A stretch of 63,593 nt of DNA, filler included, from Basidiobolus ranarum (taxonomy: Eukaryota): assembly GCA_040143965.1 (NCBI GenBank). It is 8 parts of 8 records of this genome, joined end to end, with 100 filler letters (N's around TTAATTAATTAA, not from the genome) between each part and the next. Parts side by side here need not be neighbours in the genome. Positions count along the whole stretch, not along the records: positions 39,903 to 47,738 come from JASJQH010001055.1; 7 more parts are not named here. One strand, 5' to 3'. The notes beneath the pieces were generated by a model that saw only the letters and a program-made list of their open reading frames with translations, was not told the origin of the DNA and made no database searches. Of the stretch, positions 26,160 to 61,984 are shown piece after piece (position 1 is the stretch's first letter; each line of letters opens with the position of its first letter). The translations under genes were made by a program, and so were the position numbers.

Positions 26160-27002
26160 ATTCTCTATGGGAATTTGCCAAAATCCAAGAGCTTATTCTC
26201 ATTGCAAATGGTAACAAGAGGCAGCTATCTGCCAAAGTGTCGCTGCTATTCAAAATCTCTTGCACAGATACTCTATCTGCCTGAGATCTGCCAATGGGAG
26301 TTGATGCCTTGGAATACAAATAAAGAGAGATATCAAGAGAGTGAAACCTAATCAAAAAAAAAATAATACTAAATTGGTCAAGATGCATCCTAGACATCCT
26401 AAAATGCTTTGACTTGCAACTAGACATCCCAAAACACTTAACATGGAGAGTAGCAAGCTGGCATCAGCATCAAAGCTTCTCAATGTGAAATTAATTAAAA
26501 TTTCATATCATTTAGCCCAAAATGACTCACAACAAAGCCAGGAGCTCTCTTTCAGGCCATGATGGGTAGCTTAGCATATCCAATGCTTGGAACATGCCAA
26601 GATATTGCCCTGGCAATGGGAAATGTCAGCCAATATCTCAAATATCCAGGATTTGAGCACCAAGCAGTAGTAAGAAGAATTTTCAGATATTTGAAAAGAA
26701 TTGTAGTTCCAGTTCTGGATTGTTCTGGCACACCTGATGCCCAAGATTCTGAAGCCTACAGTGAAGCTGATAGGGAAGAAACCTTGATGCTTAAAATCAA
26801 CTACTGGATACATTTTTCTGTATGGTCAAGGAGCCATGACCTGGAATAGTTACAGGAAACCAGCCATAGCACCTTCAACTACAGAAGCTGTGTATATGGC
26901 TACCTCTGCTACTACACAATAAGATATGCAGCTAACAAAGTAAGTTAATGTTTTATGATACATGCAGAATGTGCTATTACTGTATTTGAAGATAATAAAA
27001 TT
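26160..27002 (+). mobile_element. Ty1/copia RT/RNase H relic
   Basis: GSLAYPMLGTCQDIALA, RRIFRYLK, IAPSTTEAVYMA and VFEDN remnants. Confidence 0.8.
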
Positions 27003-30000
27003 TGTTGAGATTAGATAACAGCAACTTGTTACTTAGTATTTGTTCATTCATATTCTGTTTATTTAGCATTTAATTCTGACATTCAAAAGTGTGTGTTTAT
27101 TGCTCTAATTGTTAGATATATCAATTACATCACTTTTACCAATTTTCACTATTTTCTCTAATCTTCTCCAAATTGCCTCAAACTTTCACCTATGCTTTAC
27201 AGACATCAGCATTATATTCTAAACTCATGCAAAAGTTCTATTTCATGGTAAACCATATATGGGATGTATTCTAGTCAATAAATATTCAGGGTCTAATTTT
27301 CAAATCCATATCTTGTCTAAAACACTTCCAAATCTCCTATACACTTTTGTCAGGTAGTGAGCCCCAAGCTAGCAGTTAAAGGAATGTCTTCCAGTACTAT
27401 TGCCAATGTTTTTACCTCAATAGAGGAGTTTCATGGGGAATATTTTGACCTTTGCAAGTTGAAGATGCAAGTGGTGCAAGAAGGTGCAGACCTTAGGGGA
27501 TTGGCTATAAGAGAAGAAATAGAGCTAAAGTGACCACCAGAAGCTGTCCTTGCCTTTTGCAAGAAACAGAGAAAAATTCTCCCTATACTTTGTCTACATC
27601 ACAGAGAATCTCAATTGAGGCACATATCACTAAGCCAAAAATATCCATAATATCAGGGAAACAATTGGGGGACCACATGAGTTAAAATTCTAGATAATTG
27701 GCATATCTTAGACAAACATAAATCTCAATTATGATGAGTTCCGGTGATTCTAGGGCTAATCATACTAATCAGGTCTAACCCAAGGCAGATCAGCTCTATT
27801 CCATTGGAGCACCTCTAAGTGAAGATGACATTGTCATGACACTATTTGCAAGCCAGAGCCTGGCAGATGAGTTTGACAGCCTCATCATTGCACTAGGATC
27901 AAGATTAGAGCCAATAACTATAAAATATGTTGGTGCATGGCTTTTGAATGAGTATTCATGAGATCTATTTCTCAGCAGAATAGTACAGCTCAGGCATTTT
28001 TGGGAGCTGTGAAAGACTTCAATTATAGTGCCTCTGATTGAACATTTATCATATGCAAGTATTTCAAGAAACCAGGCAATTTAATCAAAAGTTGCAGAAA
28101 TAGGATTCTCACCAAAAAGCTTTAATCAGAACTGACAGATTAAGTAAGCACTGATAGGGGCTCTCTGTTTGTGTCTGCCTTATTAGTTATTGTTAAGGAA
28201 GACTCAGCCATTTGATAAATTGATTCAGGAGTTCCCCTGGCATATGTGTTTGAGAGCCTTAGAGTTGCCCTAAAATCATGATCAGTGCCATTAACTGGGG
28301 AAGAAGCTGGTGGAAGACTTTAGAATGAGAAATTAATGAGATCTAATTCTCAGCAAATTAAATAAGATCAAGCTTTTTTGGAGCTGTCAAAGGCCCAACA
28401 GCCTCCAATAATAGTACCCTTTATAGGAAGTCAGTCATCTGCAAATATAGCAAGACACCAGGACACTCATTCAAAGATTCCATGAAAAGTGTTATTGGCA
28501 AAATGCTATATTCAGAGCAAGCAAATCAAGTAGGCACTGACAGGAATCATCTATGTGTGTCTGCCCTATTATAAAAACCAAGGAAACATCAGCAACATGG
28601 TAAATTGATTCAGATGCTTCCCAGTATATGTTGAGCAAGAAATATTGGTTTTCCAGCTTATAACCATTTGAAGCAAAGAAAGTTTACTTGGGAGATGACT
28701 CAAAAGACATTGCTGGTTTTACCCTAAAATTTGAATTAAGGAACAAACTCTACTTCCTTCCACTTCACAGCAAAATAGAGTTGCAGCATGTACTGATTGG
28801 ACCATAGTGAATATAGCACAATTAATGTTACAAGATTAAATGTTTGATTTCCAATATTGAGCTGAATTGGACACCCCGGCAGGCTATATCAAAAAATGAT
28901 GCCCATCTATTTTTTCTCGAAATTTCTATCCCATTTGAAGGATGCTGGACCTACCGGCTGCTGATTTAAAGAAATGGAAGTCAGTTGTGTGCTGAGATGT
29001 GATTTTTGATGAACAATCAAAATTTTCACCTGAAATCAACCAAATAATCCGCCCCAAGTACACCAGTGAATGGCACACAGCCTGAATTATCATCTGGAAC
29101 AAGAAATTAGCAAGGGAAGTGGTGCAACAGTTTGAATCATGTTGTTTATGCATATATAGCATTTTATGATAAGACACAGACTTGAGACCAAGCTCAGAAG
29201 TCTCCAAAATCAAAAGGAAGAGAAAAAGCAATGTCTTATTAGTTTTCTTCATTTCAGGACAATAAATAATGGTTATCAGTTCTCTATCAATAGGGAGAAA
29301 GCCAATAGGTTGTAAATAGATCTACATAGTCACAAACCAGGCTGATAGAGCCATAGAAGGTTACATTTCAAGATTAGTCACTGGAGTTCCAAAAATCAAC
29401 AGCAGTTCAAAGAAATTACATCAGTACCCCACCAATGGGATTGTTTTCTTGACACCATATGTGGATGAATTATTCATAGCCACATATTATCTTGAAGCAC
29501 TCAAAGAGATGGAAAATAGTTTACAGTCATCTTATGAAGTCTTATAAGGGAAAACTATAATATTTTCTTTGAACCCAAGCCAAGTGCAATAAGCCAAATC
29601 AGAAAATCATGCTGAAGCAGTCTAAATACATCCTAGACATTCTACAATGCTGCAGCATGAATAATAGCCAGCCTGTAGCAACACCAATGGATCCCAATAC
29701 AAAATTAATCAAGGTTACATTTGATTTAGCCCAAAATAACTTAGACCAAAACCAGGAGTTCCTCTATCAGTCATTGATGGAGAGTTTAATGTATACAATG
29801 ATTGGAACATGTTCAGACATTGCTGCAGGAGTGGGAACTGGTAGCCAATGCCTCAAAAATCCAGAATCTGACCACAAAAAGCGGTAAAACAAATATTTGG
29901 GTACTTGAGAGGAACTGTAGATCTAGTTCTGAAATGCTCTGGCACTGCAGATGCATGAGCTTTTTCAGGCTCCATTGATGCTGCTTGGGGAAGAAACCAT

Positions 30001-30794
30001 GATGATGGAAGAACATCAACTGGGTAAACTTGTGTCTATAGTAATGGAGTTATAACTTGGATTAGTAAGAGAGAGCCAACCATTATATTTTCACTGCAGA
30101 AGCTGAGTGTATGGCTATCTCTGCTACTAAACAAGAAGCTATATGGTTAACACAGTAATATTAGACTTAGGATCCATGCAAAAACATGCTGTTACTGTTT
30201 TCAAACACTATGAAAGTTGTATTTCATTAGCTAAAAGCCCTACATTTCATGCTAGAACAAAATATATAGATATTAGGGATCATTCTGTTGAAGACACAAT
30301 TGAGAAGCACATGTTTGATCTTCTCTGACCTACTCCAGAAATGAATGCTGATACTTTAGCCAAACCTTTAGCTAAAGCTCAATATGAATTTTCAAAAATA
30401 AATATTAGGTTTAAGAGATATATAAAATAATTAGTTAAGTGGGAATGTTGAAATTAGGTAAACAGCAACTCAGTATTTGATAGTTAGTTTTTTCATATAT
30501 TGGTTATTTAGAACTAAATCCCAAAAGCCAAAAATGTGTGTTGATTGCTCTCATTGCTTGTATATCAACTATATCACTTTTGCAAAGATTCAATGCTTTC
30601 TCAAAATTCTCCAAACCACTTTAAGTTTCACTTGTGCTTTACAGGCATGTTTGTTGTGATTGAAACATTTGTGACATGCCTATTTTGTGGTAAGCTGTTA
30701 GTAAAACATATTCTACTCTTAACATTTAGAGTGTCTAATTTTTAAATCCAAATCCTGTCCAAAACACTTCCAAGTCCCATATACACTTTTGACA
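27003..30794 (+). mobile_element. Degenerate, rearranged Ty1/copia element (family B) with LTRs at 27003-27352 and 30446-30794
   Basis: TG..CA LTRs; degenerate PBS ggtagtgagcccc at 27353; duplicated gag/protease remnant; RT and RNase H remnants (TKYIDIR); PPT-like aagtgggaa before the 3' LTR; no clean TSD. Confidence 0.8.
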
Positions 30795-31144
30795 CCATTT
30801 GCATATTATTGCCTATCTTCATGATGGCATGGAACTCAAAACCCATGTTCTATTGTTGCTTGGAAAGAAAACTTAGCAGATATTACCTTTCCCTTGGATA
30901 TTAATGCCTGTTACTCCCAAGCTTTATCTAGGGCCTACAGCTGATTGAAGAATACAATTTAAAAATAGACATTGTTGTTGGAAGTAACAATAGATGTATT
31001 TAGTGCATTTGCAAGTGGTGTTGACAAGATTTGAATTTTTGAGAAATATACTTCACCAAATTGGATATGCCCTATCAGTAGTTGACCACAAAATTGAAAT
31101 TTTGGACAAGTTTAAATCATAAACAGTATGCCTGTGAAGAGTGG

Positions 31145-31478
31145 ATGAAAATATGAGATAATTAGTAGTTAGTTTAGTCATATCCTGATTATTTAGCACT
31201 CAATTCTGCCACTCAAAAACATGTGTTTATTGCTTTAATTAATAGAAATATTAATTAGATCACTTTTACTAATTTTCACTCTTTTCTTAAAACTTCTTCA
31301 AATCACCTAGTTTCATCCATGCATAACAGGCATGTTTGGTATGATATAAGCTTGTCCAATAGTCCTATTTCATAGTAAACTAAAAATTGCACATATTGAA
31401 TTCAATAAAACTTAAGTGTTCAATTCACAAATCTGGTCTTGGCTAAAACACTTCCAAAGCCCCTAAATACTTTTATCA
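31145..31478 (+). mobile_element. Degenerate solo LTR (family B)
   Basis: Similar to 27003-27352; ends ...ACTTTTATCA; 5' end eroded, so the start is approximate. Confidence 0.75.
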
Positions 31479-32484
31479 TGAGATTCATTCTGAATAAGCC
31501 ATACTAGATGGGATCAAAGTTTGAATGGATTGGGAAAATGCTTGAAAACCTCAAGATATCATCAAATTTAACCAGGCCTCCAACCAATATGCACTCATAA
31601 ATGTGTTTATTTAAGGGTTAGCTCAATTTTCCCTTTGTACTAATTATTTAATATTTTACTGTATTGTAATATATATCAAAAATTCAAGTAAAAGTTAAAT
31701 TAATTACAGCTGGTTGCACCATATGGATCTCATCTGATTGATATCAAGTTTTAAACATACCTCTTCATGAACTCTTTGATTAAAACCTAAATCTCATGGG
31801 ATTCTTAGTAAAGTTATCAAAGAGAGTTCAAGTTNNNNNNNNNNNNNNNNNNNNNNNNNNNNNNNNNNNNNNNNNNNNTTAATTAATTAANNNNNNNNNN
31901 NNNNNNNNNNNNNNNNNNNNNNNNNNNNNNNNNNCTACGAATATAGCATCATCGTTTGTAGCATGTACACTTGCTCAACAACCCCCATGAAAATCCCATT
32001 TTGAGTCGTTGGAATCAGTGTTCGCATTTGAATGGGGATCCAAGTTGGACTAGTCACTAAATAGGAAAGAAGCCAGGAAAAAAAATGACATGAAAAAATT
32101 CCATCCAAAGCAAATATTCCTACTAAAATCAATCACTTCAAATGGAAAAAAAAGAAAAAAAAAGTGATGATGAGTAAGTAAAGAAATCTCATCGTTCAAC
32201 TAGTTCGGTAAACTTGGAATTTTTTTTCTTAGTTACTTTTTTGAGGTTGTAGGAGATACTTTCAAACCAAGTTGACCCTCTGTCTATTGCTTCGTTACTA
32301 CCCTTCTTCCCCAACATAGACGCGAACTATTCCGCTTTCGACAGTTGTGGATTGGTTTCAACATTTGAAGAAGTGAATATTTAGAGCTATATTACCGACA
32401 ACAGCATATAGAAGCAAGCAAAATATAGACCAGCTTTACTACATATAACTCCTTCCCTTACACCCGAGAGTAGAATAGTAAAAA

Positions 32485-34607
32485 ATGGCCGACACAGTTC
32501 AATATCACTTGGAAAACATGATCCCCGAGTTGGAAGATCTTGAGAAAAAAAAGATTTTCAACAAGGAGGAGATTCGTTCTATCGTTAAAAAACGCACAAA
32601 CTTCGAATATTCTTTGAAGCGTCGTTCCCCGAAAAAAATCGATTACTTAAGATATATTGAATACGAGTTGAATCTCGAGAATTTACGTAAAAAGCGCAAA
32701 GCAAGACTCGATATCAAAGGAAAGCCTTCAGTAAGCGACTATGCTGGGCCAAGAAGAATCAACTTTATCTTTGAAAGAGCTCTTGTGAAATACAAAGGGG
32801 ATGTTGCCCTTTGGTTGCAATGGGTTGATTTCGCCAAGGGAAACAAAATGAATAAGTTGTTGTCGAAAATATTTGCTAGAGCTATTCAACTTCACCCTGC
32901 CAAGCCCTCCCTTTGGATTTTGGCTGCTTCTTGGGAATTTGAAGATAACTTGAATACTAACGGAGCTAGAATCCTTCTGCAACGTGGCTTACGTTTGAAC
33001 CCCGAATCACAAGATCTCTGGTTGGAGTATTTCAGACTTGAGTTGGTTTACATGGCAAAGATTAGAGAACGTCGTAGAATTTTGGGTATCTTGAAAGATG
33101 GAAAATCTAAACCTAAGGTAGAGCAAGAGAAGAACGAGGAGGATATGATTGTACTACCTACTTTGGATGAAGAGGAAGAGATGGAACCAAAGAGAGAAAT
33201 CACCATATCTGACGGATTAATTCAAACATTAAAAGCTGAGAACAATGCATTTTTATCTGGTGCCGTCGCATTAATTGTCTACGAAAATGCTATCAAATCT
33301 ATTTCGGAGGATCTTGAGTTCCGTAAGAAATTCCTTGAGGTTTTCCAAACCATTCCAGGTACCGAGTCAGGACAAGAAGCAGTATATGAAAGCATCAAGA
33401 ACGATTTCCCATCTAACGAGTCTGCCCGTGCCCTCTATATCGAAAAGAGTTTAGCTGGAGTTGATCCCAATAGTGTAGAGTATGTTAATGGAGTCAAGAT
33501 ATGTACACAAGGCTATAGTGAAGTGATCCAAGAACTTGGTACTGGTACCATGTGGGAAAAATATTGTGACTTTTTGAAAAAATGTCATGCACGAGTTTCT
33601 GAACAGAATCTTAAAACTTACTTTACCAAAGCCTTAAGCAAGGCCTTTAATGCCGCATCTGAACAAGCTTTGATGACTGAAAAATTATATCTTTCTTGGC
33701 TCGAGCATCTCCAAGAAGTCCAAGAAATCAATGAAGCCGTCAAAGTTGCAAGTCAAGCTGTGGCTCAATTCCCTAAGACCCCCGAACTTTGGCTCACTTA
33801 TGCTGATTTGGTAGGTAGCAACGATAGCTCTGATGCTGCCCGATCCACTATTTACGAGATCTACTCCAAAGCTTTGTCATGCAATACGACTCATCAAAGT
33901 CTTTGGGCGTCTTTCTTTCAATGGTTGATCAAAGAATGGAAAGATGAGTCGATATCTAATGAAGAAATGAACTCCAAGTTTATGGTATTGCCGCATCTAC
34001 AGTAACTCGCATTAACGCTAGAATCGCCTTTTAACCAATGTTGTTTTTACAGGATGCTGTCAAGAAAGTTCAATCTTTAACCTCAGAGTACCTTTATGTG
34101 AAGGAGTTTGTTCAATCAGAATATATCAAATGGGTAAGCGAGTGTGAAGGCATTGCTAGGTGTCGTGAGGTGTATACAAGGTAAGTTTTGGAATGAATCG
34201 TATATTGAGAGCTCAAACAGTACTGATATCCCATCCCATCACAGCCTTTCTAAGCAGCTCCCTCTTACCGCACAATTCTTCAAGCAATGCATTGAGCTTG
34301 AAGAGTCTGCCGATTCTAGCAGTTCCATTGAAACTCAAAAGCGTCTTCGCTGGTTATATGAGCATGCTATTCAAGTCAATGAAAAAGATGATCGTAAGTC
34401 TTAATTTCTATGACTGTATACTAGTTGCTGTTTGCTAACTAATTTGTTTGAACAATAGAAATCTGGATTGCTTACTTGGACCATCTTTTGTCCACAAGTC
34501 AATTCGACGAAGCAACACATATTCATTGGAAAGCACAACACGTGGTGACGAACAAGGATCGATTTGAACGAGAGTATTTCCAATTAATAGGTGGAGCTCA
34601 AGTCTGA
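32485..34607 (+). CDS. UTP6: U3 snoRNA-associated protein 6 (HAT repeats), 4 exons
   Basis: MADTVQYHLENMIPELEDL...IVKKRTNFEY...DYLRYIEYE; introns ~33985-34051, 34181-34244, 34394-34458. Confidence 0.93.
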
Positions 34608-39902: not shown

Positions 39903-40295
39903 CCTCTCTCGTCAAACAACCAGCTACCCCTTTTGTTGCTAATCTCACGACTAGCAAACCTATGATTGGGAGGCGCCGGCTGAATGGGCCCAAAACTATG
40001 GCTCAACCCAATGAATCCGACGAGCAACAATGATCCTCGCTCTGGTTTTTGGTTATTTGATCGACGGGGTCCATTCGGTATCAGTCAAGTCCTAGATCCA
40101 TTTCACTACCATTCACACTGTCATTACTATCGCTAATCACCCCACACTCTGTATATGCCCAGCTCTATTCTGTTACTAAAGTTCACACTGGCGCCCGCAC
40201 TAATTCATTCTCAACAACGATCTACCCATCAGCACTGTCATCTTTACTGAATCTTACCAAATAAAGTCATATTCAATGTCGACATCCCTAACCTT
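39903..40295 (+). repeat. Left arm of a long inverted repeat at the contig start
   Basis: Reverse complement of 47341-47738; first 111 bp identical. Confidence 0.97.
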
Positions 40296-41033
40296 CCATA
40301 TCGCCCGCTACAGTATTTCACTAGAGTGCGTTGTTTCTTATGCTTTACTTGTACGCTACGAATTCAACACTATTATCGAATGTACACATAAGATAGGCAG
40401 TAGAAGTAGAAAGCCTCAAATGATCCTAGTAAGATGATCTTATTAAGCAAGAATTGTGGCTCATTGCGCCAGTCGTATTTCATCTGCTATTTACAGATGA
40501 TTGTGCACTCTCACGAATTGAGTTAGCTCGGTCCTAAGATCCAGTAATAGTACATTTATTGATAGGAGTAGTTCAGGGTAGGGTGAATTGGAATGCCGAT
40601 AAAGTCACCTCACTGGGGAGATTCTTTTTGGAGTTCATAGTCGATATTTAGTATAGTGCATACTCAATGTTTAGCATTGTCGCTTGTTTCAAGACTGGAT
40701 CTATAAATCTGAACTTTATGCAGGCCAAGAATAGTAGTAGCCGATGTCTCTGATATCACCAATTGCCGCCAATATACCGGATAAAAACATTTTACTGAGC
40801 AGTTAATGTCTTATGTATAAGGATAGTAAGATGAAACATGATCCTTCCAATTTAATGCAACTTGAGATCCATATATTGATGTAGCCCTCCATAGAATAGA
40901 ATGAAATGTTTGGGATCCATATCAAATTCACCATTCAGTATCAGCGCAGATTCAGATATAAGACCCTCAGCTCACCACTAATTCTTGCAACCAACATCTC
41001 TCCAATTGTCTCAACAAAAGCATCTTCTACAAA

Positions 41034-41429
41034 ATGAAAATCTCCTCACGCACTAATAACTATCGCAGAAAGCCAGTAACGATAAATTGTTCACTGTGCG
41101 AGAAAACTTTCAATCGCAAAGACAATTATCTACGACATTATCGCTCTCATACCGGTGATCTGCCACACATGTGTCCTCATTCCAGTTGCAAAAAAGGATT
41201 TACTCGTAGCGATCAACTTGTTCGACACATCGCCTCCAAGCATAATGATACTCATTATAGGAATGAGTCTCCAGACAGTTCTTCCTCCGCTTATTCAGAT
41301 GATTCTCTACAGACAGTTCGCATGTATGATCACCTACCCACACTTTCTTCAAAGTTCATCAGCTTCTCTCCACAGCAATGCCACTGCCCAGAGAGTACAC
41401 GCATGAGTTTACAGTTTCTTCTGAATTGA
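41034..41429 (+). CDS. Small two-finger C2H2 transcription factor, paralogue 1 (131 aa, single exon)
   Basis: CSLC...FNRKDNYLRHYRSH-TGDLP-HMCPHSSC...FTRSDQLVRHIASKH; C-terminus RMSLQFLLN; TATAA at 40957. Confidence 0.92.
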   Translation: MKISSRTNNYRRKPVTINCSLCEKTFNRKDNYLRHYRSHTGDLPHMCPHSSCKKGFTRSDQLVRHIASKHNDTHYRNESPDSSSSAYSDDSLQTVRMYDHLPTLSSKFISFSPQQCHCPESTRMSLQFLLN

Positions 41430-42860
41430 ATTTTTATTGCGCATCTTGTTTAAGTTAGTATTTTACCAAAGGACTTTTTTTCATTATCATTCTTCTATGC
41501 CATTCACAATTTGTATATATGTACACCTTTTAATTATCCAGCTCATGACTAGAATACAACTTTTTATTAAAATGGTTCCGTACTTTGCCCAGTACGAAGT
41601 TCAGTGTTATCAATCCTATACGCTTTTATTTGCGCTTATTTTTACTCACTGTGGTAGTAGCCATCTTGAATGGCTGAGTTTTACTTATTTGGCGCCACTA
41701 TTTGATGGCTAATGGTATTGCTAAGCTCTGAATGAACGCCCAATATTATATTAAGACAGTTGGTTGTTTGATAAGTGGTCTGACCGGTACATATCCGCTA
41801 TAGTAATCTTCACCTGTGCCCCAATCCAACATATCAATCATCCCTGTTGTTGCTAAGAGTTTCATCCGAGAGTGACTAAAACTCACTTGTCCAATCTTAT
41901 TAGGCAGTTGAATACCCAGCGCTCGGCTCTGACCCTTAAACACCACCAAGTGACTGTTGCTTTCTAGGTCAGATTATTGGATTGATTGGTAGGTTCCTTA
42001 TAATTTATAAGCTTTAGAATATGTTTTACAAGCAATTTGATCAGCGACTGATTCGTATTGTACATAGCGTATGGTACATAGCTTCGAGATACTAAACTCC
42101 CTTTTACCCACTAATACATATGTCTCTTGTTACACTGAGATATTGTATCAGGTATAGATTGGATAGTCACAAGAATGCCAACAATTAAATTTAATATTTT
42201 AACTATCGGTCTAGAATTGGCCATACATCCTAGACTTGGAGAAATGGTTGGCGTGTTTAAAAAATCCGTACACGCTCTAAGGTTTCTGCTAACACTCTCT
42301 ATTTTCCCAGCCAACCAAATGAAATGAGCTTTGTGGATGGAAGCCCCTGATTGATAGAAACCAATCCGCAGTGTGAACCCAGGATTCTCCGTTGATTAGG
42401 AAATAATTCGGTACTTGAATACTCCGAATGCTTATGTAAAGATTATCTGAGATTTGTTTAGGAAGTGTGTTTATGAAATCAGGATATAATCTAAGCAACT
42501 CAGCCAAACCCTGAATAAATAAGTCGCCCAAACAATCAGAACAAAACGAGGATTCTCACTATACTTGATAAAGATAGATTGCAACGTATTACTTGCAATC
42601 AAATTAGTATTTTTATAACGATGAGGTGAATCGCAATACTTGGCTTCCAAGTATGTTTGGAAGCAAAGACCACTCCTGTCGAATAAGTTCCTACAGCCAA
42701 GCGTTGTTTCAATTATTTTTGGGGTTGAGAGTGCGGGGTTCAATTGGTAAGCCTAGGCTTGGTGTCAGAATTACCAGGTTTGAGTTAATAACCTACTTAA
42801 ATTAAGCCATATCAAATATTTATGAGGCAAAATGACACCATTGGATATTTGAGGGAATTT

Positions 42861-42878
42861 TGATCGGTGTGGAACGTT
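42861..42878 (+). promoter_or_regulatory. Conserved 18-bp upstream element TGATCGGTGTGGAACGTT (second copy at 44989-45006)
   Basis: Exact match upstream of the TATA boxes of paralogues 2 and 3, in otherwise unalignable flanks. Confidence 0.65.
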
Positions 42879-42989
42879 CTATTTTCGAATTAGGAAAGTA
42901 ACTACATATAAGTGCCAGGAAGTGTAATCATTTCCCCACTAACCCATATACATCCTTGGAATTCTAATATTCGGGAATTCTTAGAAGAA

Positions 42990-43421
42990 ATGAAAACTAC
43001 CTCACCCTCCCACAACCATTATCAGCGAAAGGCTGCCAATATCGCTTGTAAGATCTGCTGTAAATCGTTCAATCGTAAAGACAACTATACTCGCCACTAC
43101 CGTGCACACACTGGGGATTTCTTACATGTGTGTCTTTATAGTGACTGTCATAAGGGCTTCACACGAAGTGATCAACTGACAAGACATATCACCTCCAAAC
43201 ATAGGATTGGAACACCCGACAGTGACTGTAACTCTATCGTATCTGACGACTCTATAGCTACGATCAGCGATCACAGCTCTGATATTGATCGATTTGATCG
43301 AGAAATCAAGCAAAATAATCTTATGAGTATACACAACCTTATCCACGTAACCATTTTTAATCCAGCCGCAGCTCAACCTCCATCCAGGATGGAGTTAACA
43401 TTCTTGATGAATTCAGAATGA
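42990..43421 (+). CDS. Small two-finger C2H2 transcription factor, paralogue 2 (probable start MKTTS, 143 aa)
   Basis: CKIC...FNRKDNYTRH / FTRSDQLTRH; MSIHNLI and RMELTFLMN motifs; TATA at ~42906. Confidence 0.9.
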   Translation: MKTTSPSHNHYQRKAANIACKICCKSFNRKDNYTRHYRAHTGDFLHVCLYSDCHKGFTRSDQLTRHITSKHRIGTPDSDCNSIVSDDSIATISDHSSDIDRFDREIKQNNLMSIHNLIHVTIFNPAAAQPPSRMELTFLMNSE

Positions 43422-45161
43422 AAATTCCCCCCCCCTCATTTTTTAGGAATTCTCCAGTTATTATTTCCTCTATTTCACCCTCTTTTTAGATCATTATTTG
43501 TACAGCTTGTGAAAGATATTTATCGATATTGGTGTAAATACGCATTCTCCAATTCATACTGAATAAACCTTCGTTATGACAGTAAAAAAGCATCAGACTT
43601 GAAATTGATTTAAAAAGATCCAGACAGGTTTCTCCTCTTACCTAGTACTACTTACCCAGTAACTAGACAAGTATCCCTCCATATCCAGCATGCATTACGA
43701 AAATCAATGACTTAGGAGCATATGATTGGATACCATTGGGTGACCAGATTTGTCGATTATTAGCCACTAAATTTAGCGCCAATAGAACGACTTTCGTAAT
43801 GAAACAAAGCTTGGTTAATAAATCAAAAGGTGGACAAAAAGCAACTCTACAAAACGTAAGGAGTTTGATTCTTCCTCAGCACATTCACTTGAACAATTCA
43901 TATTGAGAAAGAGTTGGTTACTCTTTAAGTAATTACAGTACATAATTGGCAATGGCTGTATATATGGATATTGTTCTTGAGATAGGATTGGAGGTATGTG
44001 GGAGTTTTACAAATGATGTATATATGGATAGCGACGAGAGATTGAATCAATCTAGATGTAGCCGATACGATTCCTGTGGATTTAGAATGGATGAATTTTA
44101 GTGGCATAAAATACTCTAGTTGACCAATGATATTCAATAATTATATTTGGCAAAAGAAACTCCTGGATGAATTAAGCCACTTTATCGAGGCCGTTCTAAC
44201 AAACATAGCTATAACACAGTTATATTTCGATATAATTTATCCGTGCTGCCGCATCTAGTAGAAGAGAGTGTCGACGTATCTCTAACCATATAGGTGGTTG
44301 TCTCCCCAGGATTGCTCAGACCTTCTAATATAGCCATGGAATGAACACATGCATTCAGAATCCAATTATCAACAAAGCAAGTGCACTTAGTTTTGGTTAA
44401 TCAGGAGCTTTCTTACTTGGTTGTTGATGAGTAGATAAGTTCTTTATAGCAAGATGAAATCTGTATCCTAGATGTATCGTGATCATACTGATAAACTACG
44501 ATTTATGATCATTCTAGACAAGATTACTCTACTCCAAGGCTTTCCAAGTCTCCATATTGTCATCCGTACCATAACGAAAATAAAAATGTTAGTGCGGGAT
44601 AGAGAGTTTCAATTAATAACAAATCTAATCCAGTTCGGTAAAATCCCATTGAACAAATAAAGGATTGGTTTCATTTTATGCAGACGGAATTGTGTTCCAT
44701 TTGTTCCATGCTTGGGTAAGACTTCATTATTGCTAGTACCCTAAGACCAGGTTAATTATCGGAGTCTCAACCATATCTTTGTATATTGATCCAAACTGAT
44801 ACTTTCTTAGCGTATTCACGAATCCTGGATTCAAGTGTGTAAATCTATTCTGTGGATACATCGATATTCATGCACAGGGTCGGGGCTACTAGGACTAGGG
44901 TGAAGTAAAGGGTAGGTTAACAAATTGGGAATAATATGCATGGACTTTCTGCTGTACTCGATCATTGGGGCATCATGCATGACTCCTATGATCGGTGTGG
45001 AACGTTACTCTAAACGAATCATATCGCGCTCAGAGTCACACACAAATGCAAAAAAAGCTTGGCTTGGGTCAATACGATATTCACTAGTATATAAAGGGGG
45101 CGAATCTCAATCATCCAACTCATTCCACATTAATAATTACCACCTTATCCACTACTCTAAG

Positions 45162-45602
45162 ATGAAAGCTGCTACTCGCACCACCTATCGCAGAAAGCCC
45201 ATCCAAATTACTTGCTCTGTCTGCCAAAAGTCTTTCAATCGCAAAGATAACTACATGCGTCACTTTCGTACTCATACAGGGGAATATCCTCATCCTTGTC
45301 CTCATTTCAATTGTGGTAAGGGATTTACACGTAGTGATCAACTGCTAAGACACTTGAACTCCAAGCATTCCGAGTCCTCTCCAAGAAACGGATCCCCAGA
45401 TAGTGATTGCGGATCTGCTACCTCAGAGGATTCTCTCCAAACTGTGACGGATCAGCACCCAGAGTTTTCCACCGTACTTTCACATTATGCCTACAAGAGT
45501 AGTTCCACCTCACCAATGTGTATTCACAATCTTATCAATGACAGCGTGATGATTGCACCACAATCAGAGTCTCGGATGCAGCTTAATTTCTTGTTAAACT
45601 AA
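45162..45602 (+). CDS. Small two-finger C2H2 transcription factor, paralogue 3 (probable start MKAAT, 146 aa)
   Basis: CSVC...FNRKDNYMRH / FTRSDQLLRH; MCIHNLIN and RMQLNFLLN; TATATAAA at ~45088 lies inside the longer called ORF, which supports the downstream ATG. Confidence 0.92.
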   Translation: MKAATRTTYRRKPIQITCSVCQKSFNRKDNYMRHFRTHTGEYPHPCPHFNCGKGFTRSDQLLRHLNSKHSESSPRNGSPDSDCGSATSEDSLQTVTDQHPEFSTVLSHYAYKSSSTSPMCIHNLINDSVMIAPQSESRMQLNFLLN

Positions 45603-47340
45603 GTGACCATTTCAAACAAACCGCATAGAACTCAGTTGTATAATACCGCATCTACACGTCTTGGTGACACTGGCAATTTTTTCCATTACATTTCCAACAT
45701 TCCAATATTTTTTATATTGTACATATGTATTTATTCACATTAAAAATCATTGAAATATCAACTTACAACTTGGTCCAAAGTTCTTTAACTGTTGTTATTA
45801 TTATTATTATTCTTGATTTTTGCACAATAAGTCCTGGAACGTTTCGCGTTATTTCTAAGGTACAATACACAACCATTGGCCCAAAATATGCTGAATCTAA
45901 CACTTTTCTACCAATCATCGAGAGGTGATAAGGTAACTTTGGAAGACTTCGCAACCAACAACCTTTCCTATCTGGCTAGATGAGGATATTATGAAAATGA
46001 GAAGTTGGTGGCTACGATTTCAAATCTACTCAAATCGAAATCATTAGATACGATTTTTAGTTTACTTATTAGTAGAGTGTTTAGGATGTACGGTTCATAT
46101 TTGGCTTAATGTCAACTTCTGATTAACCTTAGAACAAAGAGGTTGGAGTGAAGGTACCATTTTCGGAAATAACTCCGGATCAACTCCGTATCTCGACAGA
46201 GCTAGATTGATTTATCAGTCCAGGTTTATTCTCATAATCGTTTCCTTGTTTATGTAGATATACCGAAGCAGCAATAGTGACAGTATGTAAATGTACGGCG
46301 TGCAGTGAAGTCAGTAATTTGCCATGCTATCTCAGGTATCACAAATCCAGCAGGTGGAAGCATAGAAATGCTATGGTACAAGTTCATAAAAATCGGTATT
46401 TCCAACCAGTGACTCATACACCAATTAAGAATGAGAATATAAAAGGAAGTGATACATATGGTTTCATTTTGAAACCATACAAAAGGAATCAGGTCTGGAA
46501 GATCGGTAGCGCGTCTTTTACCCAATGGATCAGTATTCAGCTAAATATAGTAATTCCGTATTGTGTCGTTCCAAGAACATTCTTAATTCGGTCGGTAGGC
46601 CATAATTAGGGTTTTCATTGATCGAACACCGCATATTCCGTCTAACCTGCATCGTAGCTAGCTTCTAAGATTTCTATCGAAAAATCTCGGATCTTAAGAA
46701 ATCTTAGAGTGGATCGTACGTTGAAGTGATCAAATGGTTGGAGGCAGGTGTAAGTCTGTATTTATTTAGGGGAATCAGCCAAATTTAAATATGCCCATTT
46801 CTTATTAAACTGAACCCATTCGATCCTATTTTAATCACTCTCGAATGAAATTTAAGGGTGAAGAAGCGATGAGGCGATGAAACAACAGCCAATACTTAGA
46901 TTTTGAGCACGCAAGAAATATCACCCGTTCAAAAACAGGCTTCAATATCAAGCTGCTTAACTAATAGCCACGTATTCTTTAAAATCTCGTATTACACGAT
47001 TAAAAACTTGTTTATCCTTGTTTGATGCAAATGAAGACCGTTAAGTGTAATGACGGTTATGAGCCACTAATGGGAATGTCACAGTATATTTTTAATGACT
47101 AGAGAATGCATGTGATTCCGTTCGGACCACTGACTCGGCTGAAACTCAATAGCTTGGATCCTTGAGTGGATTGTCACAACAGAAGCTTCGGAATTTAACC
47201 TGACCTGTCGGTAAAATAGACACCGTTTATCTGGATGGTTAAACGTTCTTGGTTAATTTAATTCATATACGACGATAGGTCGATAAATTATTGATTGCAC
47301 CATTTCCTCTAATTTAGATGAATGTAATAATCGAAATAAA

Positions 47341-47738
47341 AGGTTAGGATGGATATGCACAACGAATATGGCTTTATTTGGTAAGATTCAGTAAAAGGTG
47401 ACAGTGCTGATGGGTAGATCATTGTTGAGAGTGAATTAGTGTGAGCGCCAGTGTGAACTTTAGCAACAGCACAGAATTGGATACACACAATGTGGGGTGA
47501 TTAATGATAGCAATGACTATGCGAATATGAAGAGTGATGAAGTGCATCTTGGTTTAGTTGATACCGAATGGACCCCGTCGATCAAATAACCAAAACCAGA
47601 GCGAGGATCATTGTTGCTCGTCGGATCCATTGGGTTGAGCCATAGTTTTGGGCCCATTCAGCCGGCGCCTCCCAATCATAGGTTTGCTAGTCGTGAGATT
47701 AGCAACAAAAGGGGTAGCTGGTTGTTTGACGAGAGAGG
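47341..47738 (-). repeat. Right arm of the long inverted repeat at the contig end
   Basis: Reverse complement of 39903-40295. Confidence 0.97.
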
Positions 47739-48809: not shown

Positions 48810-49202
48810 TATTCTTGCTTCGATGAAAGCTAATTTATGAATTATCTATATATCTTCACTGGAAGTAAAGCTCATCCTTGTTTGCACATGTTGGTTCCAT
48901 TTTAATTGAATTTCCTTCTTATTTAACGTGGTTCCTGGATCCTATTTTATGACTAGGCATATTGATTTGGGAATATGTATGTTAATATGGGCTTATTCTT
49001 AGATGTTCGTCAATATAGATGGTACAATGTATATCAAGAATATCTGGAGGGGTTTTGGCTTTTATGAGTTATTGAAGAAATGCATTCCATGGGTTTCTCA
49101 ATTTGTATGATTAGAAATGGTGCTCAATCGTGCTAGAAGTTGTGATTATGAAGCCAAGTCGGCGTACATAACAGCTGAAATATACATGGTTTAACTTGAT
49201 GT

Positions 49203-49696
49203 TGTTAAAGTATTTGGGGGCCTGTTGGAAGTGGTTCGGAGAATTAGAGAAATTGGTGGTTTTCACTTATTGAGTTGACATTTCTAGTTTTGTCAAGAGA
49301 TGAACAAACAAATGTGTAGAAAATTCCAATTCTGAGAATAGTAAGTGATATCTTAGGGAAATGTGGAATAACTAAATACTAAGCTATATAGTCACATAGT
49401 TAGCTGCCTTAATTTCACTATGCTATTATTCAGTATCTTAATGAGGAATTTACTTACAATATTTGACCAACTTAGAAGTTCTCAGATATATATATTTTTC
49501 AAACTTATCCTAGAGGCCCCAAACTATGCACACATACTCCTGGGTCTTTTCTTAGCACATTCTACATGTTGGTTTGTTTACTTCTTGACAAAAGTATAAA
49601 TGTCAACTTTCCACTCAATAAATCATTAAGTGAAAACCACCAATTCTTTTAGTTCTCCAAATTACTTCCAACAACCCCCCCAAAAAAACTTCAACA
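49203..49696. mobile_element. Two incomplete family A LTRs fused in inverted orientation
   Basis: 49203-~49420 matches 6767-7113 with an internal deletion; ~49421-49696 matches its reverse complement. Confidence 0.8.
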
Positions 49697-50043
49697 ATTG
49701 CTAGTTGGGCATATATGAATGCATCATCGTGATTTGGCATTGATCTATTCACTCAAATGCTAGTTTATATATCACAAATGCTGGAATAGATATAATTCGA
49801 GTTACTCTCGCAAAGCATTCAAGCATATATATTGTATCTTATAAAACCAAGTGGGATTCATCATATATATGTTCAAGCGTTTAATTTTGTCAAGTGAAAC
49901 ATTGTCAGCATGCAACTAGCTACAAAATCTGACAAAAACTCTATACAAAGTGTGATAATGGATATGAAATGCTACTCACTTCAGGAAACGCTCCTAAATG
50001 GATGTGAGCTGGCACTAAATATGGTTGCTATTGAATGTCACCA

Positions 50044-53759: not shown

Positions 53760-54801
53760 TTAAATACTAGTTTGAGTAGTGGTTGTATACTCTGAGGTAG
53801 CCTCAATACAATGCTTAGGGAAAACCCCTTTTACGCGTCCTCGAGTTTCGTTAATCCCTTGCACCCAGCCATCATCATATTCAACTACAACAGTTACTTG
53901 ATCGCCTGGGTATACCTCCAGTTCATCGCCTAACGTAGGCGTATATGTGCTAATCACAGTATAGGTCTTTTGTAGGTGAGGTGGTGGTAATTTTTCATCT
54001 TCAAAAACGTTGGATTCAAATCCTCTACTGTCCCGATCAGATAACTGGGATTGTATACTCTTCTTTGATTGATGTCTACGATACATCAACATAGCAATGC
54101 CAGCAACTCCAACAACAGCCACTCCAGCTATTCCACCAATCACACCAGTAGATACGCCAGTGGAATGAGATTCATTTCCAGCAGAAGACTGATCTTTCGC
54201 TACGTCATTAGGAACGGGTGAAGTGCTGGTATTATCAGTAGGATTAGCAGAAAGAGGTTTCTTGGGAGGAGTACGATCTAAAATAGGATTTCAAATGATG
54301 GGTGAATTACGATCCAATACTTCTAGTAGCCTTGATAGAATATGTTAATTGTTAACTCGAATGAACATTCAACTTACCATTGACTGGAGTGGTTTTCAGA
54401 GCAACGCAGGTAATTAGAGATTTAACTTTGGACGAGTAGCAATTAAAATTCTTATCAGTTCCAGCTGATGAGGAAAAGCAACCATGAACGACAGTGCCAT
54501 TTCCGACATCAGAGCTAGCATCACATTCAACTTCTTGTCCATTAAAACTTCCAGATCGAAGAGGAATGGTACCATCTTGGCAGAACCCCCAGTTATCTTT
54601 GGGAGTAGGTCGGCGTAAAAAGCACCAAGGCTTCCCTTGATTATCAGCCTCTGTGCACCCTTGATATTGAATTCCTTTGTAAAGGTAAGCAGGCGCACAT
54701 TCAGAATACTTAACCGTGGGGTTCGCAGAGACAACTGAAGAGAACTGGGCAGCGAAGAGGAGGAAGGCTGCAATGGGAGAAGTTTGCGAGAATAACTTCA
54801 T
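53760..54801 (-). CDS. Type I membrane protein: signal peptide, fibronectin type II-like domain(s), S/T/P stalk, TM helix, SH3 (313 aa; intron 54278-54377)
   Basis: Splicing GTAAGT...TTTTAG joins the two ORFs in frame; CAPAYLYKGIQYQGCT...GKPWC...NWGFC; TM VIGGIAGVAVVGVAGIAMLMY followed by RRH; SH3 YTPTLGDELEV..GD...DDGWVQG...GVFPKHCI. Confidence 0.85.
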
Positions 54802-55769
54802 ATTGTATAATGAGGTTCGGGCACTATAGATACTCTTTGGAGTTGAGACACAACGACTTCAATATATTTGTCTCCAAATGAATACCGCTATGTATGCTAA
54901 CAGTAGTGAGTGTTGAGAGATTGATTGAAAGTTTCAATTTTGCTCAACAAATAGATAGAAACAAAAGCTTAATTTGCCTTTCCGAGTTCCTGCTCTTGGC
55001 TGGTAATAAATAAGAAGTGAAATTCACCAAGGAATTCACGCAATAAGCTGTAGTGCAAGGACCTGTGAAAGCAAATAAGTATTTGAATAGGTCAATGATC
55101 GATATCCAGCACTGATCTTTGATTCAAACGAAAAGGAAGATTTTCCAATAGCGTAGAGTAACTCAAAAATGGGCTGCAATTATTACGCGTTATTGTTATG
55201 TAGGAGAACAGTAAATATTCTAAACAAAACGAGAGTACAGCAATCCGAGAAGGTAGTAGGGGAACAGCTCCAAGGATCGGTATAAGAGAAGAAAAGAGAT
55301 AGAAAAGAGGGGAGAGAAGGAAAGGATTAGAGCACTGAACGGGAGAGAACTGGGTTTGTTAAAATACTGGCGCACGATCGATTTTGGGAGAAAATCAACT
55401 CAATAAATGATTGCATGAAACCCTGCTTATATGCATGTAACAAAACACAAATGAATTTTACCTATTCTGTCCTATATACTGCCCAGGTTAGATTGAATAT
55501 TTCCAAATACCACAATAATATTGTAGAGCTTAAATGAGCTTGTTCCCAATCTAGGTAAGCTCATAACATAGGAATCAGCTTGAGGCCTGTTTTTCCCAAT
55601 GCATCCAGTCCAGTAAAAGGCAGTTGGCAACAGCCTCGTTAATCCTACACTCATACACGTATGATCCCCNNNNNNNNNNNNNNNNNNNNNNNNNNNNNNN
55701 NNNNNNNNNNNNNTTAATTAATTAANNNNNNNNNNNNNNNNNNNNNNNNNNNNNNNNNNNNNNNNNNNN

Positions 55770-56288
55770 ACATCTGGTAGCTAAGCTTGGCTTGAACTCT
55801 CCACTACTCAATAATCAAAGCTGCTTCCTTTACTGTAAGTGTTATGAGTGGACTAATATTTGCCGATGTAGTTGTTTTAGGGTGTAAGCAGCAACTATAT
55901 TTTACCTGATTCAGTGATTGCCAATTTTGTGCAAACAGTACATGACTTCAGGTTATTCATATCACTGGTGAAAGCCAAACAACTATTTGGACATGAAGCC
56001 AGTTTAATTACTGAAGGATTGCAAGTCATACAATTGACAAGTGTTTTCCACTTGTACAAGGTCTGTGGCAAGCAACAGTTGCCAATCAACTGTGATAAAA
56101 GCATAAGAAAACCAATAAGCATCTGGTTGCCAAGATTGAATTGAACTCTTCACTCCCCAATAATACAGCAGTTTCCTTTACTTAGGTGCTATGGGTAAGC
56201 TAATGCTTGCCAATAACAGAGAGGTGGAAATAAAACCATTGTCCTCTTCTTCATCCTCTGATATACTACTATCAGTACTGGAATAGCC
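55770..56288 (-). pseudogene. CACTA tnp2 relic fragments; the host sequence continues at 60931-~61340
   Basis: Homologous to 24360-24780 (SCPNSCLAFT...CTVC); 55790-55865 is a second partial copy. Confidence 0.8.
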
Positions 56289-59200
56289 TGATAAAAGTGT
56301 TTAGCGGATTTGGAATCGTTTTGGACAAGATTTGGATTTGTGAATTAGACACTTATGTTTTATTGAATTGAATATGTGCTATTTATAGTTTACTATGAAA
56401 TAGGACTGTTGGATGTGCTTTGATCATAACAAACATGCCTGTTAAGCATGGGTGAAAATTTAAAGGTGATTTGGAGAAGATTTGAGAAAATAGTGAAAAT
56501 TTGTAAAAGTGATCTAATTGATATTACTATCAATTAGAGCAATAAACACATGTTTTTGAATGGTAGAATTCAGTACTAAACAAGTAGAATATGAATAAAT
56601 TAACTGCTTAGTAATGAGTTGCCATATACCTAATTTCAACATTTCCACTCACTAATTATTTTGTATTTCTCTTGAACCTTACTGATAACTTGTTAATTTA
56701 AATTGTCTCAGCTAAAGATTTGGTTAAGCTATCAGCTTTCATCTCTTTGGTAGGGCAATAGACAAGTTGAGTTATATTATTCTCTACAGCTTCTCTAACA
56801 AAATGATGTCTAATATCTATATATTTTCTTGTAGCATGAAACTTAGGGCCTTTAGCTAATGAAATATAACTTTGACTATCTTCAAATACAGTAATAACAC
56901 ATTTTTGCATATATCCTGAGCCTGTAAATAACTTACTTAACCATATAGCTTCTTGTGTAGTAGCGGAGTCAGCCATATACTCTGCTTCTGTACTGGAAAG
57001 TGCTATGGTTAGTTGCTTCTTACTATTCCAAGTTATGGCTCCATTACCATAGAGAAAAGTGTACCCAGTCATTGATCTTCTATCATCAAGATTTCTTTCC
57101 CAGTCTGCATCACTTTAGCCTGCAAATTTTGTGCATCAAGCGCAACAGAGTATTCCACAACCAGATCAACAGTTCCTCTCAAACACCTGAATGTTTGTAT
57201 TACTACAGTATTGTGCTCAGATCCTGGATTTTTGAGATATTGGCTGACAGTTCCACTGCCATAGCAACGTCCGGACGTGTTCCAACCATTGTATACATTA
57301 GACCACCCACCATGGATTGAAAAGAGAACTCCTGGATTTGATTTGAGTCATTTTGGGTCAAATCAGATGGAACCTGATTGATTTAACATTGGGATCCTTT
57401 GATGTTGATGCAGGCTTGCTATTCTCCATGTAAAAATGTTTTAGGATATCTGGGATGTATCTAGACTAATTCAGCATGATTTGCTGATTGGGCTTATCTC
57501 TCTTGATTTGGATTCCAAGCAAATAACTTAATTCACCCATACCATTCATCTGAAATTGTTTTGATAAGCTGCTTTTTGTCTTATTAAGTGCTTCTAGATC
57601 ATTTGTGGCTACAATCGAGTCATCAACATAGAGTGCCAAGATAAGGATCCTACATCCAGTTGTTTTGATGTAAATACTGTGATCTGATGTGCATTTTTTT
57701 GCTTTCTAGTGACTTCAAATAGGTATCTATCTTGTTGTACCATGCCCTGGGTGCTTGCTTGAGAGCAATATTTGCAGTTTACAGACCATATCGGGGTGTT
57801 TTAGGTGAAAAAATCCATCTGGTTGCTCCATATAGATCTCATCTTCTGGAATTCCATTCAGCAAGGCTGTTTTTACTTCCATTTGATGTGAATCAAGGTT
57901 ATGGATGTCTGAGAGTGCCAGAGTTGATTGATTGGAGCTAAAGTTAGATACTGAGCCAAAGTTTCATTGTGAACAACTCCTGTTGTCTGCAAATAAGCTT
58001 TTGCAACTATTCTTGCTTTGTACCTTTCTATGGTTCCATCAGCTTGAATTTTGGCTTTGTCAACCCATTTGCAACCTATGGCTTTCTCCCTGATGGTAGA
58101 GGACTTAATACCCATGTTTTATTGTCCTGAAGTGAAGAAAACCCATCAGACTTTGCTTTTTTGCATAGTTCTGGTTTAGGCTATTCCAGAGCTTGATCTA
58201 GAGTCTGTGGCTCATCACAGATTGCTGCATAGGTATTTGCATCATCATGGGAAGTGTTCCACTAGTTTCCAGGCTTATTCTTCCTTCTGGAAGCACTTCT
58301 GGGTCCTGAATCATCCTCTGATGCAGTTAGGACCGGAATTTTGGTTGAACAGGGCTCAGATACAGCTTGATTTTATCAGACACTTCCTGAATAGTGCTGA
58401 TTGTGTTTTCTGATCAAGAACTGTGATTTGAGGTGCAAAATTTTGTTTTTCATCAAAAATCACATCTCTGCACTTAATTAACTTCCAATTCCCAATTTTC
58501 AAACAGTCTGTAGACCTTAGATTCATTGCAGTCACCAAGAAATATGTGTTTTCTGCTTTTGGTATTCAATTTAGAGTGTTTTGAGCTGGAATTAGGCAAT
58601 ATGCTGTGAAACCAAAGATCCTAAGATGATCCACACTTGGTGTTGATCCATGTAGGGCTTCAAGTAGAGTAGAATTCTGTAGGAATTGTGTTGGGCATCT
58701 GGTTTGATGTAGACTGCAGTGGAGGCATATTCAGCCCATTATTGGTAATCTAACTTTTGATCATGCAACATTGATCTTGCCATCTCTACCATGGTCCTAT
58801 TAGCATGTTCTGCAACTGCATCTTGCTGTGGAGTATAAGGTTCAGTAGTTTATTGCTTAATTTCATTGTTAAAACAACAACAAGCAAAGTCTTGTGAGCA
58901 GTATTCTCCACTATTATCACTCCTGAGTACCCTTATTTTTTGTGCAGATTCTTGCTCTACCACTGCTTTGTAGTGCTGGAAAGTAGCCAAGGCTTCAGAT
59001 TTTGATTTAAGAAAGAATAACCAAGTATATCATGTTTAGTCATCAATAATGGTCATAGAGTATCTTTTCCCACCTAGTGAGACATTTATCATTTGCCCAC
59101 ACAGGTCAGAATTAATCAGGGAAAGATTCTGAGTGGATTTGAATGCTCCAGAGCTTAAAAGTGGCTGTCTGTGAAGCTTTTCATATATGCAACCTTCACA

Positions 59201-60930: not shown

Positions 60931-61344
60931 TAACCAAGGTCAATGTCAAGCAGCATGCCTCAAAGTTGTTGTGACTTACTTGCCCAACCAAAGTGCATTT
61001 CTACCAACATCATTCTACTCATAAAACTCTGGTAACTCCACAGTATCTTGTCTTTTGGCAATGTTACCAAAACTTTGAGACAAAGCACAGCCAGTGGGCA
61101 CAGTGGGCAAAACTCAGGTTGTTTTTGTGCACCTGTTACTGTTGATATTCACTAGGCTTTGTGCAGCTAGTGGCTTTGTACAGTGACTGTTCTTGTGATT
61201 ATTCTTTTCATGAAGCCTCCAGCTTTTGTAGCACAAGAATTTGTGACAATAATAGCAGGGCTTCTTTAAGTGTTTATGTTGTGGCATGAGAGGCATATTG
61301 TAGAAAAACAAACACCTTTTATATGTTTGTGGTATTTTAGGTAT

Positions 61345-61975: not shown

Positions 61976-61984
61976 AATTATCAA

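Follow-up and report, generated by a model that had tools for sequence, protein, structure and literature searches.

The 63,593-base stretch of Basidiobolus ranarum DNA analyzed here (hereafter, the window) consists of eight separate contigs, arranged by descending size from 7,896 to 7,824 bp with N/TTAATTAATTAA/N spacers placed between consecutive contigs. The sixth contig, at 39903-47738 (7,836 bp), is in its entirety the feature under study: it begins and ends with the same sequence in opposite orientation, a property of only one of the eight contigs, and three small Cys2-His2 (C2H2) zinc-finger genes lie between the two ends. Each arm of this inverted repeat measures at least about 400 bp, and the two arms flank a single-copy core of roughly 7 kb. 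The explanation we favor, with a rough probability of 0.6, is an inverted segmental duplication, the outer part of which has been homogenized by gene conversion, placed around an ancestral cluster of C2H2 genes. The assembly is highly fragmented, as eight contigs of about 7.8 kb attest, and since unrelated contigs were joined to make the window, the neighbors of 39903-47738 are uninformative about its flanks.

The inverted repeat was characterized by reverse-complementing 47220-47738 and aligning it to positions 39903-40420. Columns 1-111 show no difference (111/111); columns 112-181 hold 68 identities, one substitution, which is A/G and falls at arm base 112, and one single-base indel within a run of T; and columns 182-403 hold 174 identities, 35 mismatches, and 13 gap columns. 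The 35 mismatches of this inner zone comprise 27 transitions and 8 transversions, which gives a Kimura two-parameter (K2P) distance of 0.196 for the 209 sites aligned. Columns 404-549 contain 52 identities, 47 mismatches, and 47 gap columns, and we read the arms as having no real similarity beyond column 403; at this inner edge, the similarity fades without a sharp stop. BLAST recovered the arms as a single inverted high-scoring segment pair, 39903-40303 against 47738-47332, with 87% identity over 411 columns and an E-value of 7e-140. No exact repeat in the window exceeds the 111 bp of the perfect inverted match, which is far beyond chance; the second longest measures 48 bp. A 247-nt inverted pair (I1) in the repeat listing of the window is inflated by the N spacers. 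The alignment and the BLAST match bear out what the initial annotation had described from the sequence, namely contig ends made of one sequence in both orientations, an outer 111 bp that is identical, a following ~70 bp with one substitution and a 1-bp indel, and an inner ~210 bp that is clearly more diverged.

The identity of the two arms changes abruptly along their length. Read from the outside inward in blocks of 40 columns, it amounts to 100, 100, 98, 98, 80, 62, 75, 92, 92, 78, 50, and 25%, and the difference between the outer zone (179 of 181 columns identical) and the inner zone (174 of 222) is significant by Fisher’s test (p = 1.1e-11). This profile is a step and not a smooth gradient. 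An identity gradient had been taken earlier as a sign of ongoing homogenization between the arms; the outward rise to 99% does fit homogenization, but its shape is not that of a gradient. Because the inner zone carries 35 substitutions and several indels, the arms are two distinct genomic copies and not a hairpin or fold-back chimera, which would have yielded identical arms.

The core between the arms carries three co-oriented paralogous genes for putative transcription factors (TFs), TF1, TF2, and TF3 (Table 1), and the sequence upstream of each gene also falls within the core. The start codon of TF1 lies 731 bp from the inner edge of the left arm, and the stop codon of TF3 lies 1,730 bp from the right arm. 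The three proteins score 34.2, 33.6, and 41.3 bits against PF00096, for a cut-off of 25.2 bits, and the Cys2-His2 ligand columns are invariant in all nine aligned sequences of the family, TF2 included. Their common features are an N-terminal RRKP motif, two fingers, a serine- and acid-rich stretch, and a C-terminal SRMxLxFLLN motif. The best matches in the PDB are the DNA-binding fingers of ZNF568, PRDM9, WT1, and EGR1, and the exact sequences of TF1, TF2, and TF3 are all present in a public protein collection.

Table 1. Coordinates of the repeat arms and genes of the contig 39903-47738, counted along the window.
Feature	Coordinates	Strand	Remarks
Left arm, outer near-identical zone	39903..40083		181 bp; GC 0.50; 10 CpG; 179/181 columns identical to right arm
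Left arm, inner diverged zone	40084..40303		222 columns: 174 identical, 35 mismatched, 13 gap; K2P 0.196
TF1, two-finger C2H2 protein of 131 aa (P0008)	41034..41429	+	Pfam zf-C2H2, E 2.9e-08
TF2, two-finger C2H2 protein of 143 aa (P0010), fast-evolving paralogue	42990..43421	+	Pfam zf-C2H2, E 4.3e-08
TF3, two-finger C2H2 protein of 146 aa (P0001)	45162..45602	+	Pfam zf-C2H2, E 1.6e-10
Right arm, inner diverged zone	47332..47558		Paired with the left inner zone in the same alignment
Right arm, outer near-identical zone	47559..47738		180 bp; GC 0.51; 10 CpG

No other gene is recognizable on the contig. Among the 27 other stop-to-stop open reading frames (ORFs) of at least 50 aa, none reaches its Pfam cut-off, and the two faint matches among them (E = 0.097 and 0.034) stay well under the cut-offs. 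The same Pfam scan of ORFs of at least 50 aa found no transposase on the contig, nor any HMG, alpha-box, or homeodomain match, the C2H2 fingers being the only domains. The ORF and Pfam scans thus agree with two earlier statements, that the three TFs are the only recognizable genes between the arms and that no transposase accompanies them. A search by tblastn with eight family proteins for a decayed fourth TF copy produced, apart from the three genes themselves, no match with an E-value under 0.26. When the core was compared with itself by BLAST, the TF copies were 68-71% alike in coding DNA alone, intergenic similarity was nil, and this coding match was the sole self-similarity of a core that holds no long internal repeat. 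Since the resemblance is confined to coding DNA, the tandem triplication of the TF genes is much older than the arms.

The age of the cluster can also be approached through its relatives. A protein search with TF3 returned eight proteins, two of which are the window’s own; three belong to Basidiobolus meristosporus CBS 931.73 (78, 63, and 50% identity) and three to B. ranarum (79% for one partial sequence, 61 and 51% for the other two). The closest B. meristosporus protein, P0002, is 78% identical to TF3 by the search and 79-80% by alignments. A tree of nine proteins pairs TF1 with P0007 of B. meristosporus as its sister (support 100/99, 67% identity) and attaches TF2 only weakly to the TF1 clade, by a long branch of 1.69. 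One B. meristosporus contig of 266,172 bp carries both the TF3-like ORY07433.1 and the TF1-like ORY07434.1, and a second such pair, ORX64315.1 and ORX64316.1, is found on a contig of 13,008 bp. Because the accession numbers are consecutive in these two separate pairs, we infer that the counterparts of TF1 and TF3 are adjacent in that species. Given this pairing and the TF1 orthology supported at 100/99, the cluster, or at least TF1 together with TF3, predates the split of the two species; the adjacency on the 266-kb contig marks it as ancestral and not as captured cargo. The two copies of the B. meristosporus pair encode an identical TF1-like protein (P0007), and their TF3-like proteins (P0002/P0009) fall into one 90% cluster; this doubling could mean that a segment was duplicated recently or that a second haplotype is present.

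Full-length relatives of the TF family were seen only in Basidiobolus. A profile search of 1.84 billion representative sequences gave 60,089 matches at E ≤ 0.001, and 148 of the 150 best were multi-finger proteins of 503-5,807 aa; among these 150, full-length matches are limited to P0006 and P0004, a yield that leaves the search uninformative on the range of the family. A profile of the family picked out 11 loci in metagenome contigs, all of them generic C2H2 and none Basidiobolus-like, so they were set aside: the best is 44% identical over residues 1-94, and matches of 57-67% span only 18-21 residues. Similarly, a look-up in the ESM Atlas led to generic C2H2 clusters only, and the papers that a literature search returned on Basidiobolus and C2H2 proteins, judged by title and the start of the abstract, do not deal with this family. 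The family is uncharacterized and, with its tiny two-finger proteins and SRMxLxFLLN C-terminus found here only in Basidiobolus, may interest specialists of the genus.

As for the arms themselves, the inner-zone indels are 1, 1, 6, 2, 1, and 3 bases long, i.e., not all multiples of three, and stops occur there in all frames, because of which the visible arm sequence is taken as non-coding. Two frames in the arm are open to the contig end, one of 42 codons directed inward and one of 59 codons directed outward; neither found a relative among longer proteins at E ≤ 10, a weak negative given a word-based search with short queries, run against a database that includes the gene calls of this very assembly. 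No Rfam family was matched by the arms at E ≤ 1 and no tRNA was detected, and a 27-mer from the arm had no match in metagenome contigs. The guanine-plus-cytosine (GC) fraction is 0.50-0.51 in the outer zone, against 0.39-0.42 in the inner zone and 0.38 in the core; just 0.3% of 2,053 180-bp windows across the whole stretch reach the level of the outer zone, which is unusually rich in CpG as well. The raised GC value fits either GC-biased gene conversion or a genic or promoter region. The outer zone contains one ATG on its outward strand versus five on its inward strand, and the outward strand folds better than shuffled sequences (z = -3.07, all 200 shuffles scoring worse), unlike the inward strand (z = -0.74); the ATG bias and the folding are weak hints of an outward transcript. 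A consensus fold of the two arms gave 99 predicted pairs, 2 of them compensatory, which, coming from two sequences only, is no evidence for structure.

The repeat is cut at one and the same base at both contig ends, a symmetry for which assembly offers a simple account. A contig from a de Bruijn-graph assembler would correspond to an edge that starts at a branching k-mer and carries the whole last shared k-mer. If the assembler had used K = 111, then, with the first difference between the arms at base 112, the contig would begin 111 bases before that difference. As mutually reverse-complementary sequences, the arms would cause both contig ends to attach to one repeat vertex; an edge departing from that vertex and returning to it would have the topology expected of single-copy DNA enclosed by inverted repeats. 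De Bruijn-graph assemblers require an odd k, and 111 is odd. We infer this value of K and, with it, that the end points were set by the logic of the assembler and not by biology. Since such logic would fully explain the symmetry whatever the outward length of the repeat, the symmetry is no evidence for a long collapsed repeat. The initial annotation was right that both arms stop at the same base; the collapse of a longer identical repeat that it drew from this observation does not follow, K = 111 and a mismatch at base 112 being sufficient. No telomere-like repeats are present at either end of the contig.

Taken in order of events, the favored explanation has three steps. (i) A segment beside the TF cluster would have been duplicated in inverse orientation, later than the gene triplication, the relative ages resting on the contrast between a K2P distance of 0.196 in the inner zone and the lack of any remaining intergenic similarity between the TF units. 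(ii) The inner 220 bp of the arms would then have diverged by about 20%. (iii) The outer 181 bp, and probably more sequence beyond the contig ends, would most likely have been kept 99% alike by arm-to-arm gene conversion, i.e., non-reciprocal recombination, with the boundary of the conversion tract presumably near 40083/47559. At the inner-zone rate, about 32 differences would be expected in the outer 181 bp, of which only 2 are seen, and this deficit makes gene conversion the economical explanation; purifying selection on non-coding DNA rarely achieves near-identity of such degree. Beyond the contig ends there would most likely be two paralogous genes that face outward, or some other duplicated unit, with the arms as their 5' or regulatory part. 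If conversion takes place between the arms, some events should resolve as crossovers and thereby invert the core, and an occasional inversion polymorphism of the core is plausible. Nothing indicates a regulated or functional switch.

The proposal closest to the one favored here is the more mundane alternative of the initial annotation, two outward-facing copies of one gene undergoing concerted evolution, in which the outward genes are, as in our own account, only presumed. Several points weigh against the favored explanation or limit its reach. The outward genes, the length of the repeat, and its copy number are pure conjecture, the contig ending at the arms. No further copy of the arm occurs in the other 55.7 kb of the window, an absence that excludes only very high copy number, the genome behind this window being presumably tens of Mb or more. 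The adjacency of the genes in B. meristosporus rests on accession numbers and shared contigs, not on coordinates, and no counterpart of TF2 was identified in that species, where no search was made with TF2 itself. K = 111 is, to our knowledge, not a default of common assemblers, and no second contig confirms it. Finally, the 99% zone could be the product of a younger, second duplication, or it could be a strongly constrained element, e.g., a promoter or a structured RNA, the latter in keeping with the fold of the outward strand (z = -3.07).

Repetitive DNA of other kinds is found elsewhere in the window. Two contigs, 23960-31834 and 55770-63593, are almost without CpG, with observed/expected (o/e) ratios of 0.04 and 0.08 versus 0.57-0.81 in the other six contigs, and they share segments that are 79-90% similar, both mutually and internally. 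The second of them, contig 8, contains a gag/pol relic at 59626-60042, in which zf-CCHC scores above its Pfam cut-off and Pol_BBD just below. These CpG-poor contigs look like products of methylation-driven retroelement decay. The outer zone of the arms, by comparison, has CpG o/e ratios of 0.91 and 0.88, with 10 CpG per arm. At about 0.9, the ratio is far from the 0.04 and 0.08 of the CpG-poor contigs. The arms thus bear no resemblance to the transposons that have undergone methylation and decay in this genome, in agreement with the earlier remark that they keep their CpGs.

A dispersed element of ~112 bp, miniature inverted-repeat transposable element (MITE)-like in size, occurs at 1-112, 6766-6876, 7225-7287, 49202-49298, and 49583-49697; four of these copies are full-length, and the one at 7225-7287 is partial. 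Contig 1 starts exactly with this element, which is 96% identical there to an inverted copy 6.6 kb further on, and in contig 7, two copies (82-85%) face opposite ways with roughly 285 bp between them. The 112-bp terminal repeat of contig 1 was considered as a check on K = 111 and discarded as uninformative, the element itself being about 112 bp long.

The presence of such repeats lends some substance to a second explanation, which we nonetheless consider unlikely, that the arms are two independent, opposite-facing copies of a dispersed repeat, e.g., a transposon end, a solo long terminal repeat, or a member of a multi-copy gene family. Short-read contigs usually break at repeats, and the window does hold repeats, in the form of the 112-bp element at five places and the retroelement relics. 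Both arms also lose similarity at about one inner point, as would the ends of one element; however, this inner edge fades and is not sharp, and identity along the arms is stepped, at 99% and then about 78%, where independent copies would be expected to differ uniformly. The composition of the arms, with a CpG o/e of about 0.9 and a GC fraction of 0.50, is unlike that of the CpG-poor transposon contigs. In the remaining 55.7 kb, where the 112-bp element is found five times, the arm has no other copy, and its open frames are without protein relatives.

A mobile cassette bounded by terminal inverted repeats (TIRs), that is, a Pack-MULE-like or foldback-like element with three captured regulator genes, was one of the two possibilities raised by the initial annotation. 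This idea is weakened by the counterparts of TF1 and TF3, which are consecutive on the 266-kb and 13-kb contigs of B. meristosporus: the cargo would consist of three intact, long-diverged genes, two of them with counterparts apparently adjacent in another species, in a cluster that predates the younger arms (K2P 0.196). The contig shows no transposase in any of the 27 other ORFs, the three TF ORFs carry zinc fingers only, and the window contains no second copy of the cassette or further copy of its arms. Long inverted ends with the outermost part best conserved do recall such elements, since some TIR elements are best conserved at their outermost ends; no terminus is visible on the contig, but the actual ones may be situated a short way beyond it. 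On balance, a mobile cassette is very improbable.

We give as little credence to an assembly artefact, in the form of a chimeric or mis-joined contig or of wrongly joined haplotypes. The 35 substitutions and several indels of the inner zone argue that both copies are present in the DNA, and the core has no long internal repeat on which the assembly graph could be mis-threaded, only the 68-71% match of TF coding sequence. The high fragmentation of the assembly speaks for this explanation, as does the gene pair on two B. meristosporus contigs, which hints at duplicated or multi-haplotype genomes in the genus; still, the pattern affects one of the eight contigs and is therefore not systematic.

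The other possibility raised by the initial annotation, a regulated flip/flop locus, would have recombination between the arms invert the core and so set TF1 or TF3 beside a silencing or activating neighborhood. Its attractions are inverted repeats with signs of arm-to-arm recombination, paralogous regulators at opposite ends of the core (731 bp and 1,730 bp from the arms), and a precedent for inversion driven by inverted repeats in Ogataea polymorpha (PMC5720833). Inversion, however, would leave every promoter connected as before, since each TF gene retains in the core the DNA upstream of it, and could act through a position effect only. No centromere, telomere, or heterochromatin neighbor is visible on the contig; the TF genes are not mating-type genes by their Pfam domains; and the visible near-identity extends over only 181 bp. 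A regulated switch is accordingly a highly doubtful reading of this locus. Were it true, with both orientations coexisting, it would extend inversion-based regulation beyond budding yeasts and represent a flip/flop cell-state switch in an early-diverging (zygomycete-grade) fungus, built on C2H2 regulators instead of MAT genes.

Lastly, a complete linear plasmid or virus-like element with terminal inverted repeats (invertron) would place both contig ends at the same repeat base, and 7.8 kb is a typical size of fungal linear plasmids, but this candidate was rejected as next to impossible, its gene content and the chromosomal orthologues of its genes ruling it out: the contig ORFs encode no DNA or RNA polymerase and no Pfam domain besides the C2H2 fingers, the gene counterparts lie on a 266-kb contig of B. 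meristosporus, the arms differ by about 20% in their inner zone, and the composition resembles that of the other nuclear contigs.

The other contigs of the window carry ordinary housekeeping genes, which fit a normal fungal nuclear genome: an esterase at 1602-2459 (+), a carbon-nitrogen hydrolase at 2942-3949 (-), a coatomer alpha C-terminus at 15983-16372 (+), and UTP6 at 32482-34002 (+). An ORF at 54355-54858 (-) has a borderline match to the Pfam fibronectin type II domain (fn2; E = 1.1e-4, 22.6 bits for a cut-off of 22.2), a domain that is mainly animal; it adjoins an SH3-domain ORF at 53763-54290.

On the favored explanation, the structure of the contig 39903-47738 would be nothing unusual: an old cluster of genes flanked by an inverted duplication and recovered in a fragmented assembly. 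The contig would also exemplify how matching inverted contig ends can arise from assembler logic, and how limited the conclusions are that can be drawn from such ends.

Among known systems, the flip/flop of Ogataea polymorpha is the natural point of comparison for an invertible arrangement. According to PMC5720833, two identical 2-kb inverted repeats invert a 19-kb region beside a centromere in that yeast, and the centromere next to one of the repeats silences the nearer MAT set, MATa or MATalpha. The Basidiobolus contig likewise has an inverted repeat around a region with regulatory genes at both ends, where inversion is possible; it differs in having no MAT-type domains, no visible silencing neighbor, and a place in another lineage. 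The proteins encoded in the core are comparable to small fungal two-finger C2H2 regulators (PF00096), with which they share two classical fingers and a TGE-type linker, and from which they differ by their very short length (131-146 aa) and the family-specific RRKP and SRMxLxFLLN motifs. Their second finger may resemble the Mig1/CreA type.

The long inverted ends, the genes between them, and the lack of a transposase recall Pack-MULE and foldback elements. Such elements, however, tend to carry pieces of genes and to be present in several copies flanked by target-site duplications, whereas the genes enclosed here are three intact old paralogues, some with counterparts apparently adjacent in B. 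meristosporus, and no further copies are seen in the window. Sex-chromosome palindromes and the inverted repeats of plastids are kept alike by arm-to-arm gene conversion. Although only 181 bp of the homogenized part is visible in Basidiobolus, the contig resembles these conversion-type inverted repeats both in its layout, two inverted arms around a unique spacer, and in the texture of its arms, where a 99% zone with raised GC lies beside an older part of about 78% identity, across a sharp boundary.

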